A DNA stretch of 64,000 nucleotides from Eledone cirrhosa (taxonomy: Eukaryota), in NCBI GenBank assembly GCA_964016885.1, contig OZ024757.1:26784001-26848000 (forward strand), read 5' to 3'. Of this stretch, positions 39,090-56,777 are shown piece after piece. Numbering within the stretch: position 1 is the first letter of the stretch; each line of letters starts with the position of its first letter. Below the pieces are notes generated by a model. The model had not been told where the DNA came from. It saw only the letters and a list, made by a program, of their open reading frames with translations, and made no database searches. The position numbers and the translations under genes are program-made.

Positions 39090-41178
39090 AATTTTAGTAC
39101 AGCATTAACGAAGCTTTAGGTTGCGGCCAAGCTAACGAATGCAAATTCGGAATGTAGCTTTAGCAACTCGATAGGGAATAGTACCCCAGAGTAATAACAA
39201 TACATTTAGACAGCTTTGCAAATCAAATATAGCGATCGGCAGTCCAGCCGCACTGCCATAGCAACGAAAATGGTTGGACTCAGGAAAAGATTTTAGACTG
39301 ACCATGTGTGTGTGAGTGTGTGTATCTGTATCCCAGGTTTTAGAATAGATACATGATATCTGTCGTAAGGGGTGACTTTAGGAAGGGCACCTGGCTATAA
39401 AACTTGCATTTTACATATCACACACACACACACATATATATATATATTGGTCAGCGAAGGGAATAACATGTATGACCGGTAACATGTCAATGGATATTTA
39501 CATCTTGTTTGGATATTTGTCTGAAGAGAACACTTAAGGCAGTTGTTATATAATTGCCTTACGTCTTTGAAATACGTATAACAAAATAAATAGGGATGTA
39601 CAAATGAAATCGTCTTTTTTGTTTATTATATATATATGGAGGCACATGGCTTAGTGGTTAGAGCATTGGCCTTGCAATCGAAAGGTTGTGAGTTCAATTC
39701 TCAGACCGGGTGATGTGTTGTTTCCTTGAGCAAGACACTTTATTTCACATTGCTCCAGTTTACTCAGCTGTAGAAATGAGATGATAGGGACTGGGGTCCC
39801 TATCATACCACTGCAAAGTGGTCGTGGAGGTGCCACGGCAAAAAAAGCACCCAGCACTCACTGTAAATGAGGTTGGTGTTAGGAAGGGCATCCAGCTGTA
39901 GAAATCAAGCCAGAATCAGTTCCCGTCCCACCCTTGCAAGCAGGGAAAAAGCGGACGTAAAATGAAATATATATATCGTTATGCAGTAATACAGATGACC
40001 CGCCTTCCCATGGGCACGGGTTGAAGCTGAAGCATATATATATATATATATGTGTTATGCACCACCTCCACCTCAACCCCACCCTCCCATACATCTCCCA
40101 CGAGGACAGGCTGAAGCATACATCTAGTGAAACCTACAGCCCACACCACACTGTAAAGTGGTCATGCTGGTGACTAGACAAAAAGCGCCCAGAACACACT
40201 ATAAAGTGGTTGTGTTGGTGACACGATAAAAAGCGCCCTGCCCACATTGTAAAGTGGTCATGCTGGTGACATGACAAAAAGGGCCCAGCCCACAACTGTA
40301 AATGCGGTTGGCGTTAGGAAGGGTATCCAGCTGGAGAAGCCAGGCCAAAATCAGTTCTGTATGAGCAAGACATAGTCATCTGACCTGGCATTGTTCACAA
40401 CAGGTCAACTCATCTAACCCATGCTAGCATGGAAACATGAATGTTAAACAATGATATATATATATATCCATTGATTTGAGCAGTTTGTAGCTGTTTAGCT
40501 GCTTTGGTTAGTGCAAGCAACCTTAAGCTATATATCTACAGGGTAGGGCAGTTGAGAGAGTGGGGAAGACTAGGAAATAATACAAGGTAAAGAAGTAGGT
40601 GTGGAGAGAGAGATCAATGCTCACAACATATGGATGGTTTAGTCAAAAAACAAAGCTAAGCTGGCTAGCTGGATTAAATAGATTACATAGATATAGGAAA
40701 TCAATTTCTTTTGACACAGTATGGCAATAAGAAAAGTCAGAAGGAAAGTAGGGAGGGGCTCTTAGCTAAGAACTTCTTTTGTAGTTGTCTTACTAGGAAA
40801 GAGGGGCAACAGTGGTACCCCCAGCCATGCAGAGTTTATTTTAAGGAAATTTTATAACTGCATAAATCTTTGAGGCATGGGCCGTGACCCAGTATTTGAT
40901 ATTCTTTGAATCTGAGAAGCATTTGTAATGGTTATATTTTAACATTTTATGAGTGTTTTATGTTTTTTTAACCCTTTAGTATTTAGATTACTCTATATTT
41001 ACTATTGTATTTTCACTGTAAAAGCTTTACCTCACATAATATCGAATCTATGATATTTTGATATCATTTATTTTGAGAAGAATTCTGGTCGGATATGGCC
41101 GGTTTAAATGCTAAAGGGTTAATCATCAATTAATTACCATATAAGTAGATGTAGTATTTGACAGAAAATGTAAACTTA

Positions 41179-41358: not shown

Positions 41359-41544
41359 AGAAGAGGTCAACTGCATAAGCTGGTAATAGCTGCACTAGCA
41401 GGGAACAAGTGCATGTCAAAATAAACACTATAGCCTGTGATACAAAACTTAGCTGCAGGTATTATAAAGCTACAGTAGAGTAACAAACAGAACATAGCAC
41501 GGAGACATGAATAAAATGTGCTAAGGTATAGTGCTAATACTCAC

Positions 41545-41682
41545 GAGAAACACTGAAGGCAAAGCTTGTCGGATAGTCTTTGATTAGTAGTTGAAGTAGG
41601 GTGCCCTTACCAGCCCCCGACGGTCCACTAATGACAATAGTTTTTATATTGTTCATCTTCAGTGCTGTACTGGAGAAAGATG
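41545..41682 (-). CDS. GUK1: Guanylate kinase exon with P-loop (core ATG at 41656; 41682-41657 is coding only in the long isoform)
   Basis: Polypyrimidine-CACAG| acceptor and C|GTGAGT donor. Encodes MNNIKTIVISGPSGAGKGTLLQLL...FAFSVS. Confidence 0.95.
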
Positions 41683-41869
41683 CTGTGAGAAAGAAAGAAA
41701 AAGAAGCATTAAATAGCAATCTTACAAGTGAAATAAAAGTTGTTATTGTTATGGTTCACTCCTGGGTACATTTTGTGAACCTCATACAATATATTATCAT
41801 ATATACAGAAGACCCGACTTTCCAAGGGTACAAGCTGAAGCTGAAGCATATAGACAATATGCTCCCACC

Positions 41870-47530: not shown

Positions 47531-50500
47531 TGAGAATAAATTAAAATCTTCAACAAGAATCTTACATTAAGTTACTATCTTAGTAATAAAATAATTAATT
47601 ATTTTAGTAAATCCCTCAAAATTCTTCATTAATATATTGAAATAGAGTGTATTTCATTAGAAATGAGGACATGAAAAGGGTTAAAGCAAAGGTTTCCTGG
47701 GTTCTGAGAGAGAATCTTGGAGATTGGTGCTGAGCTTCTGTTTCATATATGCAAGGAACCCATATGAAGTAGATTAGTGTTAAATCTCTCTCTGGATAGG
47801 ACACCAGTCATCACAGGTAACATTCCTCAAATGATCAGGTAATACTTATTCTATATATTCTCTCTTTCTCTCTATATATATATGTATATACATATATCAA
47901 TCATCATCATCATTTAACGTCTGTTTTCCCTGCTAGCAAGGGTTGGAAGAGTCTACATAAACCAAGTCAGCACTGAAGCGAGGCTACTGATGTCTCAGAC
48001 AGACCAAGGGGTATGTATCCCGCTTACATGTGGTCTTATTTAGTACAGAGAAGTTGCCATTTCTTTTGACACAAACTGGGCTATAGACTGGTGTTGTTGT
48101 TTATACAGTGTTCCTTTATATCCGGTAACTTAGCAGTTCTACAAACAGAGATGAATAAAATAAGTAGACGTATGGAAAATAAAAAAAAACATGGAATGTC
48201 TGGCCAAACACCTTTGATCAATTATAGGATTGTCCGATCATGGCATGCCTAGGGCTAAACAATAACAACAACCAATATTAAAAGGCTCTAGAGCTACTAG
48301 AAATAACAGCCAAAAATCTCTCTTGAGTCACACAAAAATCAAAACAAAACAAAAAAAATGACACAGAATAATGCAGTTGTGGGTTCCGTGATGGTCACGG
48401 ATAGAATGCCTTTAATTATATGATGCTGCAAGATCAGAGCCGACCAAGGGTTAAACAACAATAACACCAAACTATCCACGTACATTAGCCCTGCTCGTTC
48501 AAAGCTGGCTTCGTGTTACATGGCGCCTCTATGTGGTCAGTAGACCTGCAAGAAATAGCAGCTATCTTCCTCAAATGACACCGATTAAGTAAAAACAAAA
48601 CAACAACTTTATAAAGAAAGGGGATACAATGAATAATATAGATGGGATGGTCATGGCTAGCAGGCCTTTGATCATAGGTCTGTTGGATGTGATGACCTGG
48701 GGTTAAACCAGACAGCGTTTATGTAGTCACACAACATGCTAGAAATAGTAGCAAAATTTCTATCAAATTACACATTGTCTTCAAAAAAGAAAGGTGCGGG
48801 ACACATTACATAACGTAATCCTTGATACACATATGTTAATGTAGTCCAAGGTACATTATGCTGTGTTCGATCAACGCTACAAATAGTATTGAGCGAATGT
48901 GTTTATAAACACACATATATATATGACTTTTACATGACTAAAACTGTATGAAATCATCAGGATCACCTCCCGATACCCATTTGGAATCCATCCATATATA
49001 TATATATACAGGGTGTTCCCCAAAATGTATACACTTCAACAGTATTCAAATCAAAGTGTGCATACATTTTTTAGGATGTATGTATGTATGTATGTATGTA
49101 TGTATGTATATATTCGTTATTATCGCCAAGAAATTTTGCTACTATTTCTAGCACGTTGTGTGACTACATAAACGCTGTCTGGTTTAACCCCCAGGTCATC
49201 ACATCCAACAGACCTATGATCAAAGGCCTGCTAGCCATGACCATCCCATCTATATTATCCATTGTATCCTCTTTCTTTGTAAAGTTGTTGTTTTTTTTGT
49301 TTTTACTTGTTATTTGGGAGTTTACCTGTGGACTCCATGGATCACCAGACGACGTATACGGATATATATATATATATATAAATGAAAAGTATAGAAATTA
49401 TTGTAGCAAGAAGCCAACAGTATTCCGGTGCACCCAAAAATGTATACACACTTCAACATCATTCTAATCAAAGTATGTATACATTTTTTGGGACACCTTG
49501 TATGTAAATCTATCTATATATTTGTGCGTACGTGTATGTATATACAAATAAAAACAAAGGAACGAACGTACATGTGTATATATATATATATATATATAAA
49601 CTATAATAAAGTATACATAATGTGTGTGTATGTATATACAAAAAAAAAAAAAAATAAAAATAAAGGAACAAACGTATGTTTGTTTATATACACACACATA
49701 TTTTAATAAATATATATATATATATATAATATATATTATACACATATGTTAATATATGAAGGTATTTATAATATATATATATATATATATATAAACAAAT
49801 AAGATGTATATAATTATAATTGTTTCTACATTTGGCACAAGACCAGAAATTATCCCAGTGTATTACTGGTACTTCATTAATAAGATGTATATAAGTATAA
49901 TAGGTGTTGTTTTTAAAAATAAGGTGTGCAAAGGGAGAGAAGATGGAGGTCTCTTACCTCTCAGACCGACTGTGTGACTGTCAAGAGGTGTTGAGAAGGT
50001 GAACCGTTAAAGACAGCGTACTTATGAAGGTATTTAAAATTAAAAGGTACACGCAAAATCTATGTATATGAATATGGGTGTGTATATATATTTTCCTATA
50101 GAATATGTATTTGGTATATATAGAATATACCGTGTTTCTTTTACGATACAATCAGGATCACTTTCTCCCCCCCCCCTCTCTCTCTCTCTCTATATATATA
50201 ATAATAATAATGAAATTATTGTGTACAGTGCTCAGGTGCACTACAACTCATCAAAGGCGCATGTATAGTACATAGAATAATGTACAAATGTCAGGAAAAT
50301 GAACAGTGTATGAGTCATGATACAATAACAATAATGAAATATTGTGTACAGTGCCCAGGTGCACCACAACATATATATACATATATATATATATATATAG
50401 TGTATTAGAGTTCATTACTCACCAGAGTACTCGATACTTGGGGTAGTAAATTTGGACACCTTACGGCTGCACCTGCCGTTTCAATGGATCTATCTGTTGA

Positions 50501-50712: not shown

Positions 50713-50751
<39 letters not shown>

Positions 50752-50788
50752 ATATATAAGATCAAAAGATGGTTAAATGAGTTCCATG

Positions 50789-50859
50789 TATTTTATTATG
50801 CGCATTTCAAAAACAAATATCATCATGCAATAACATTTGTGTTTTCGTCAGATAAAATA
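50789..50859 (-). ncRNA. Type I hammerhead ribozyme motif (inverted twin)
   Basis: Reverse complement of 50962-51032 with core CTGACGA (variable N7 position) and one A-U to G-U change in stem II. Confidence 0.85.
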
Positions 50860-50961
50860 GGAGGACATGATATGAAGGTTAAAAACACTTGTGGATAGTG
50901 CAGTTTTAAATCAACATATGCACTATCCACAAGTGTTTTTAACCTTCATATCATGTCCTCC

Positions 50962-51032
50962 TATTTTATCTGATGAAAACACAAATATTATTGCATGATG
51001 ATATTTGTTTTTGAAATGCGCATAATAAAATA
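50962..51032 (+). ncRNA. Type I hammerhead ribozyme motif
   Basis: Stem I TATTTTAT/ATAAAATA (8 bp), core CTGATGA at 50970-50976, about 15-bp stem II, GAAA at 51013-51016, palindromic TGCGCA stem III. Predicted AUA cleavage after 51024. Confidence 0.85.
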
Positions 51033-51156
51033 CATGGAACTCATTTAACCATCTTTTGATCTTATATATTATGTATACTCCAGTCCTACAAATTGTAGAG
51101 TGCTTCTTATCCGATACCTGCATTGCTTTATTGTACTACAATAAAAGTCACCTCCT

Positions 51157-51207
<51 letters not shown>

Positions 51208-51808
51208 GGGTGCGGGCGATATTTGTTCGCAACTTTGCAATGTCCCGAAAATGTACACACACTTGGATTACCTGTATAGGGAATATATATTAGAATTCTG
51301 TTGAAGTGTGAATACGTTTTTAGGACACCCTGTATGTATATATATAACAGATTAAACTTTAAGCAAAGAATCACTGCTTTCACCCTTAACGGGATCTTCA
51401 GAAGAGTGAAAGCAGCGATTCTTTGCTTAAACTTTAATCTGTTATTTTAATAAATATTTGCTCTATGGTTCTTATATATTTGATATATATTTATCCTTAT
51501 CGAGCCCTCTTTGGATTTTAGTCTTCACATTTATTATTATTACTATATATATATATATATATATGGTTAAAAAAGTTCCATATATATAATATATGGAACT
51601 TTTTTAACCATCTTTTAATTTCTTCTTTAATATATACTCCAGTTCTACCAACTGTTGAGTGCTACTTATCTGATATATGCATAGTTTTATTGTTCTACAA
51701 TATTACTCACCTTCTACATTATATATATGAGTATATATATATATATATATGAGTGTGTGTATATATATATATATATATATATGAGTATATATATATATAT
51801 ATATATGA

Positions 51809-55423: not shown

Positions 55424-56704
55424 GTCACGCACACATATCCAGGAAGCTGATACGATAACGATATGTATATGCAGTGCCTCAGCCGGGTGGTTGGAACAGG
55501 TAAAAGAGTACACGCACACACACACACATATATATATATATTATGCATGTATGTGTGCACAATCAATGCATGTGAGCATATGTATATATATATATATAAA
55601 CAATGCAATAATGCATGTGCACGTATGTAAGTATGTAGACAGATAGTAGAAATACGTAGACAGACAGAAAGATATATATATATATATATGCAGATAAGAC
55701 CAATTATATTGACAGATCATTAGAAGAAATAGACAAATGAAGAGCAGATAGTGAAATTTAATCACGATTACAAACTATAGACATTGCCAGAAGAATGTCT
55801 TGTTATGTAAAGACATGGGGAAGGAAGGTTGAGGTGTGGGGCGACATTTCGGGGGTGTTTTTATTTATATATTTATCTTCACTTCCTACTTTCAAATGTT
55901 GCTCTAAACACTTATACAGAGTTAAATCACAAGCTAAACTACACATGGTCCTTTCATCGAGACTCCATTTCAAATTAATACGTTTGGCTGTTTTCCTCTC
56001 CTGCAGAGGAAATCCGACTTTTGAAAATAATTTCTTTTTGGCTACGCCTCACATAAAAAATATGTGTGTGTGTGAGTGTATATATATATATATTTGTTTA
56101 CATACAGATCTGTGTTCATTATATACACAGGGTGTCCCAAAAATATATATATATATATATTTGTTTACATACAGATCTGTGATCATATATATACATATAT
56201 ATATATATCTATATACGTATACAAACATATATATATATATGTTAATGAGATGGAGGTAAGACCACGATCTCTGGCGGCGTGTTTGTAACCTTTCCAAGCT
56301 TTATATATATATTCAGGGTGTCCCCCAAAAATATATACACACTTCAACAACAATCCAATAAATAAATATTGCCTGTACAGGTAATCAAAATGTGTATACA
56401 TTTTTTTGGGACACCCTGTATGTATATATATATGTATATTTATATCAAATGTGTTACACAGAAGGATTAAATGATTGACAGCGGAGTAGCAGGAGAGGAA
56501 TGTGAACTACAGCTTACGTTAATATATATATATAAACACATGCATATAATATATATATATAATTTTACACTTGAACACACGTCTGTTTTAAGGTTAAATA
56601 AGGTATAAAAGGGTAAGAAAACGAAGAAGAAGCAGCAAAAAGATGAGGATGATAATGGAATAATTTTGAGACGGGATAAGCTTGGACAGAGCGAAGTAAC
56701 TTAC

Positions 56705-56777
56705 CAGCTGGCAACGTGGAGATTGTGACAATGTTGGAACACAGAGATTTCAAACACCTCAGTGCGCGCACGTGCAT
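56705..56777 (-). CDS. GUK1: Putative upstream GUK1 coding exon encoding a mitochondrial-type presequence
   Basis: ATG, 24 codons (MHVRALRCLKSLCSNIVTISTLPA) and a consensus G|GTAAGT donor in phase 1. Splices in frame to the acceptor at 41682, which lies 26 nt before the core ATG. Confidence 0.65.

Follow-up and report, generated by a model that had tools for sequence, protein, structure and literature searches.

The palindrome and its setting in GUK1

The window analysed here is a 64,000-nucleotide stretch of the Eledone cirrhosa genome (assembly GCA_964016885.1, contig OZ024757.1, positions 26,784,001 to 26,848,000 of the forward strand). Unless a locus handle is given, coordinates refer to this window, which contains the following features:

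50744-51159: whole insertion, a head-to-head pair of short pLTR copies of a Penelope-like element (PLE), apparently of the Hydra clade
50744-50919, minus strand: left arm, of the 'short' type, element positions 2-177
50919-51159, plus strand: right arm, of the 'tailed' type, element positions 19-259
50903-50918, minus strand: the 'spacer', unpaired left-arm sequence, element positions 3-18
51078-51159, plus strand: one-sided 82-nt 'tail' of the right arm
50785-50869, minus strand: left-arm type I hammerhead motif, with its core at 50851-50845 and cleavage predicted between 50797 and 50796
50952-51036, plus strand: right-arm type I hammerhead motif, with its core at 50970-50976, GAAA at 51013-51016 and cleavage predicted after 51024
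50721-50743: left half of the (TA)n target tract
51162-51201: right half of the (TA)n target tract
56703-56777, minus strand: coding exon 1 of GUK1 (ends approximate), located by tblastn with mollusc guanylate kinases
41543-41704, minus strand: coding exon 2 of GUK1 with the P-loop (ends approximate), located likewise

With exon 1 near 56777-56703 and exon 2 near 41704-41543, the palindrome falls in coding intron 1 of GUK1, where the initial annotation had placed it, and the left-arm hammerhead motif is sense to the GUK1 pre-mRNA. The paired parts of the arms (50744-50902 and 50919-51077) are 159 nt each, 99% complementary and 16 nt apart. The inverted repeat described earlier is thus real, but its arms had been given as 152 bp, with 7 TA-like bases omitted. 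The intervening 16 nt, at first taken for a separate spacer, are element positions 3-18 of the left arm, missing from the right; and the insertion extends to about 51159, 82 nt past the right arm. The arms differ, as reported, at exactly two places, 50847/50974 (N7 of the ribozyme core) and 50834/50987 (stem II). These had been called structure-neutral differences; both sites vary across the family (5/137 and 61/137 arms), so no selection is shown at the locus.

In the numbering used here, position 1 of the element is the C of the CATATG at the turn. The left arm is full from the inferred transcription start (the A at 50919, minus strand) to an internal TA-like 3' end, the right arm lacks the element's first 17 nt, and the two are joined through 1-2 nt of microhomology at 50919-50920, a junction (L001) of the class in which only the short arm is complete. 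A target-site duplication is indistinguishable at 50744-51159, which is flanked on both sides by (TA)n. The 82-nt continuation past the palindrome is found in the tailed arm of nearly all copies; in full-length copies it runs on into the 5' UTR, with the ORF's ATG about 80 nt beyond. In the family the tail also carries, on the antisense strand, a strong splice-donor-like motif, which at this locus (51143-51157, minus strand) has one base changed, as judged by eye.

The neighbourhood holds several other repeats. An older copy of the same family, 82% identical to the L062 unit described below, lies at 51562-51718 and contains a small fold-back in (TA)n that turns near the hammerhead cut site. 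A hairpin with 55-nt arms, 87% complementary and TA-rich at its flanks, occupies 51333-51456, and nested inverted repeats of 122 and 63 nt occupy 48586-49305. Between 51207 and 51332 is a short element with inverted ends and TA on both sides (by eye), resembling a Tc1/mariner-type MITE.

In each arm an outward-reading motif combines CUGANGA, GAAA, a palindromic UGCGCA and an AUA site with a stem I of 8 bp and a stem II region of 36 nt. The CUGANGA/GAAA/NUH core with three stems, open at stem I, is that of a type I hammerhead, and the outward pair of hammerheads initially described is borne out by the inverted repeat, the cores and the folds; the motif scan also placed both predicted cut sites alike. 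A generic scan of the window (stem I of at least 8 bp) picked up these two hammerheads and no others, and 100 of 100 shuffled sequences gave none. A search of the window with Rfam, which the initial annotation had proposed as a check, yielded no hammerhead at the gathering score or at E <= 10, with hairpin-type chance matches only, and the ribozyme assignment therefore rests on motif and fold. All 11 core bases are intact in 131 of 137 sampled arms; common variants number 0 in the 11 core positions vs. 23 in 132 other positions, a contrast that is not significant alone, and 6 of 8 common stem variants keep pairing (by eye). Little weight is given to the ViennaRNA probability of the monomer hammerhead fold, 8e-7, since core and tertiary contacts lie outside the model; for the dimer stem III duplex, -10.5 kcal/mol is predicted. 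Cervera and de la Pena describe, for the pLTR hammerheads of such elements, a palindromic helix III, weak and dimer-dependent cleavage, and opposite-strand pairs 100-700 bp apart (PMC4209133).

Copies that start at the predicted cut, which lies at element positions 124/125, make up 4 of 33 internal starts (p = 0.001), three of the four being in L197 and the other in L063, and among the first 100 downstream-anchored arms there is one (L162). This pattern suggests that cleavage happens, yet that cut RNA may be a minor template. L197 (G000:C1:331692657-331695679) is a single insertion in which three segments start where the hammerhead is predicted to cut, and two of these are fused to sequence from within the ORF; the arrangement looks like repeated template jumps on cleaved RNA. 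A further type I hammerhead motif, of unrelated sequence, lies at 39521-39580 (plus strand), within GUK1 intron 2 and antisense to the gene; it has a CUGAAGA core and a palindromic UACGUA stem III, and probably belongs to another PLE family.

The repeat family and its coding unit

Mirror-image stubs like the palindrome number at least many hundreds in the genome. A search with the right arm gave 771 candidates, of which 40 were scored and are mostly 99% identical, and an inverted partner lies 16-56 nt away in 19 of the 30 top loci fetched (palindrome locus included). For a 25-nt sequence spanning the ribozyme core, the genome holds 15,714 exact matches (control, 0), and for a 16-nt sequence behind the cut it holds 18,160. 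The cassette of the initial annotation is accordingly no one-off but part of a genome-wide repeat whose junctions differ from copy to copy (19/30 top loci; 64 junctions). Since its arms are 99% identical to many dispersed copies, the insertion in GUK1 is young; it is non-coding, and an ordinary stub among many.

Longer copies continue upstream through a UTR of about 1.2 kb into the C-terminus of an endonuclease-like protein, for which a C-terminal peptide gave 54,482 first-look candidates (other families included); the 150 that were scored are all 93-100% identical. In L062, where the repeat unit is about 3.9 kb, the order is an inverted pLTR, a pLTR, an open frame of 821 codons and a second pLTR, with a single ORF of 800 amino acids counted from the ATG. 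Searches of Pfam, NCBIfam and PDB sequences recognised neither this ORF nor its homologues. Its AlphaFold model (pLDDT 67, pTM 0.47) has TERT as top Foldseek matches (E 6e-8), and the motif pattern of its putative C-terminal GIY-YIG endonuclease (EN) resembles, by eye, the EN rows of Hydra-clade elements; the profile search for this domain gave no match. The family has direct and inverted pLTRs, 5' truncation and a one-sided tail, as PLEs do, and its hammerhead motif sits in the pLTR, as in EN+ PLEs. That the arms are the pLTR ends of a PLE is, in our judgement, practically certain, and the link to PLE-type hammerheads with a palindromic stem III, proposed from the locus sequence, thereby stands. 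A second, Hydra-like PLE family, 42% identical to the main one, is represented by an open frame of 642 codons at L061:7175-9103 (minus strand).

The Hydra clade has been defined by DKT, RWK, a CxCx5C linker, and CxxC and CxH flanking conserved E and N, without the CCHH motif (PMC8557442). In our motif alignment the family has DKT, RW[T/I], CNCx5C, CNLC..E and N..CLH, and so follows this definition except that the K of RWK is not kept; insertion into (TA)n is a further trait of the clade that the family shares. Motifs, (TA)n target and hammerhead together fit placement in the Hydra clade, as far as sequence comparison can place it. The unit of about 3.9 kb in L062 is longer than the general length of Hydra-clade elements, below 3 kb, which is typical, not defining (PMC8557442). 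The Neptune clade was considered and rejected: it has a CX2-5CxxC linker and the CCHH motif in its EN, and the linker of the family is CxCx5C, as in Hydra.

Ends, junctions and the origin of the palindromes

The junction samples were anchored on motifs, are non-random and come mostly from one contig. The 3' ends are fixed: 130 of 224 segments end at 257 and 71 at 177, and both end types (about 177 and about 259) are TA-like and run directly into (TA)n. Of 47 head-to-head pairs, 44 combine a tailed with a short end; the 47 include two pairs (L033, L038) resembling unrelated neighbours. The 2.8-kb palindrome of the family at L031:3466-6236, in which both arms are tailed, is one of two such among the 47. 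Paired arms share minority alleles 126 times, against a shuffled mean of 32.5 and a maximum of 67 (2,000 shuffles). We therefore reject two unrelated RNA templates per insertion as the rule; the shared haplotypes could also reflect arms homogenised by gene conversion, or a pair of RNAs from a single source locus. With two pairs left out, there are 71 within-pair differences, of which 13 fall at 13 sites that are polymorphic in the family (p = 0.011); one of the two differences at the palindrome locus is among these 13. Such a pattern would fit if two templates are occasionally used or if the sites are mutable.

At the other end, among the first 30 ribozyme-anchored arms of contig C1, 10 have their start within positions 1-6, 15 run on upstream and 5 start elsewhere. 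Genome-wide, 11,147 arms reach the A at position 2. The base beyond is the templated G in 6,885, of which 4,417 extend upstream, C in 2,111 and, by subtraction, A or T in 2,151. The arms that end at this A thus number 4,262, about half of them with an extra C; C makes up 49.5% of the non-G cases, vs. 33% if the bases were even and 19% in the element. The extra C is on both arms in some junctions (L129, L156), and some extra Cs can be read as the partner arm's first base. The terminal 8-mer is re-copied in L013, L143, L146 and L147, three of which came from the C-anchored search; these repeats look as if the RT had realigned at the end of its template. Perfect palindromes centred on ATAT occur at 543 places, counted among the cases with the templated G. 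Completeness was compared at 64 adjacent junctions: in 28 neither arm is cut short, in 19 the short arm alone is complete and in 4 the tailed arm alone, 9 have two incomplete arms, and the remaining 4 join arms of the same type (scored by regular expression, with a few misreads, e.g. L003); the excess of short-only over tailed-only completeness, 19 vs. 4, has p = 0.003.

Untemplated G in L1 and SVA insertions has been ascribed to cap copying (PMC3287187). Copying of a cap would give an extra C on the cDNA, and the C excess after the position-2 A is taken as a sign of it. An internal promoter has been described in Drosophila Penelope (PMC2377424). Internal initiation, which had been invoked to unmask the ribozymes, may hold in another sense, the left arm being complete from the element's inferred start site. 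The TTCATA at this site fits an initiator consensus. Among 30 copies spanning the tail into the ORF (219 in the genome), none clearly begins at position 2: one old copy (76%) is ambiguous, one is unmapped, and the others extend upstream or break elsewhere. Position 2 is therefore not the usual 5' end of long templates. The 3' pLTRs, which are far more numerous, may be the main source of the short RNA, with copying in trans; alternatively, sequence may drive the hot spot.

We favour, with moderate confidence, a two-primer, capped-RNA origin for the palindrome insertions. The element's putative GIY-YIG domain would cut both strands of a (TA)n tract, and each cut 3' end would anneal to one of two AU-rich RNA sites 80 nt apart (177 and about 259). 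Both cDNAs would pass the uncut hammerhead toward the 5' end of one short, probably capped RNA, at which the primer nearer that end would usually arrive complete and the other would often fall short. On meeting the cap the RT would add a C, at times it would copy the terminal 8 nt again, and the two cDNA ends would then be joined by microhomology, often the self-complementary ATAT. In the titles and abstract openings that our literature search covered, with subscription journals thinly represented, neither a cap nor a two-primer reading of PLEs was found.

The same element could also have produced the palindrome by fold-back, as proposed for rotifer PLEs, one cDNA or antisense RNA priming on itself (PMC3846280), with the tail left by endonuclease resolution of the hairpin (PMC8557442). 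Self-priming accounts directly for identical haplotypes in the two arms and for the perfect palindromes; we nevertheless think it unlikely, since fold-back of a tail-primed cDNA predicts that the tailed arm is the complete one, opposite to the 19 vs. 4 just given, and fold-back from a short cDNA is unable to create the tail. The extra C on both arms of L129 and L156 also speaks against it, as does the turning site, which has no strong hairpin (-4.4 kcal/mol); a hairpin pause there was discarded for the same weakness of the fold. Quite unlikely, in our view, is a reading that keeps the two primers and treats the position-2 hot spot as a joining site, the ATAT annealing to the partner cDNA or to the (TA)n target, so that no RNA 5' end is involved. 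ATAT does lie exactly at the turn, solo copies adjoin (TA)n there and ORF-bearing copies run past it without a stop. Such joining leaves both the C excess after the A and the re-copied 8-mers unexplained, and no comparable hot spot is seen at the element's other TA-rich places. Amplification of the palindrome as a single MITE unit was also rejected, junctions differing among copies.

The remaining alternatives concern the locus itself. The predicted fold of read-through RNA is a single long hairpin that hides both ribozymes (-253 kcal/mol), so the self-masking proposed in the initial annotation is retained as a property of the fold; the purpose-built cassette is not, the geometry being that of a standard head-to-head PLE insertion. 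Masking is common to every such insertion and would thus be a by-product of head-to-head geometry, not a locus-specific device. A selected double-ribozyme switch regulating GUK1, masked in this way and unmasked by internal initiation or A-to-I editing, might draw on the two intact cores, the intronic site and the very stable hairpin; it is highly improbable for an insertion so young, with arms 99% identical to many dispersed copies, in a family where intact cores are unremarkable (131/137) and junctions vary freely. That the palindrome is an assembly fold-back artefact is barely credible: none of the short-read contigs listed spans the whole stretch, but there are two sequence differences between the arms, whose ends are unequal and whose flanks are dissimilar, and contigs of other runs join 50914-50920 to many right-arm positions, in the same junction class.

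The two-primer, capped-RNA origin can tentatively be taken a step further, to a 'strong-stop'-like PLE product. A single enzyme complex bound to both (TA)n ends may make two copies, each from its own fixed start site, of a capped RNA whose 5' end lies about 70 nt upstream of the hammerhead, its telomerase-like RT copying the cap, realigning and re-copying the last 8 nt as telomerase does with its template. If this is true, the thousands of short arms are a fossil record of the promoter start, the priming order and the rarity of ribozyme cleavage in templates. PLE inverted-repeat formation and the role of the hammerhead have been described as open questions (PMC8557442, PMC11167929), for which this family is useful in having young copies, intact ORFs and thousands of junctions. 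These junctions give sharp predictions: at which nucleotide the RNA starts, that the extra C derives from the cap, which of the two arms is complete, and that templates are mostly uncut. The family has also seeded the introns of a cephalopod genome with many perfect hairpins of 150 bp. Such hairpins are likely substrates for A-to-I editing. What the locus contributes is a new PLE family, and its value lies in the family-wide mechanistic read-out, not in the locus itself.

Comparison with known elements

With the Hydra-clade PLEs of Craig et al. 2021 (PMC8557442) the family has in common a single ORF with RT and a putative C-terminal EN, a hammerhead in the pLTR and the (TA)n target. It differs from the clade's references in a 3' UTR of about 1.2 kb, in an Asn/Pro-rich insert ahead of the linker, in having RWT or RWI for RWK, and in a tail of 82 nt, where the references have 30-40 nt (PMC8557442). 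The clade includes Hydra-1_Obim of Octopus bimaculoides, and the family appears distinct from the Hydra-1_Obim entries, both hammerhead and protein differing when compared by eye. Head-to-head pLTRs with one tail are already published PLE anatomy: Craig et al. describe the PLE 5' end as an inverted, 5'-truncated copy and the tail as one-sided, and in their supplement rows Penelope-13_HM is annotated with such a copy, like the family (PMC8557442).

Metazoan non-LTR retrozymes resemble the stubs in their type I hammerhead with palindromic stem III and in being short, non-coding and mobilised in trans (PMC7229834; bioRxiv 10.64898/2026.07.22.740005). They are described there as head-to-tail tandem monomers cut into circles, whereas the palindrome unit is a head-to-head pair whose ends do not match the hammerhead cut site. 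With pairs head-to-head and a tandem array absent at the site, a retrozyme was rejected.

The Poseidon element PAc of Anolis is comparable to the family in that its tail is set by two neighbouring RT start sites inside the RNA and its target is AT-rich (PMC11167929). For this lizard PLE in vitro, Frangieh et al. report that both strands are cut and extended and that the main template is uncut RNA (PMC11167929). PAc belongs to another clade, and its start sites are inside the ORF, whereas those of the family are upstream of the ATG; inverted products and cap run-off are absent from the parts of that account compared here.

Penelope of Adineta vaga, finally, shares with the family head-to-head pLTRs, a palindrome at the junction, a tail on a single arm and Inr-like motifs in the pLTR (PMC3846280). 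Arkhipova et al. ascribe the A. vaga palindromes to self-priming on an antisense template (PMC3846280), whereas the asymmetry of the junctions in the octopod family favours two primers on sense RNA.
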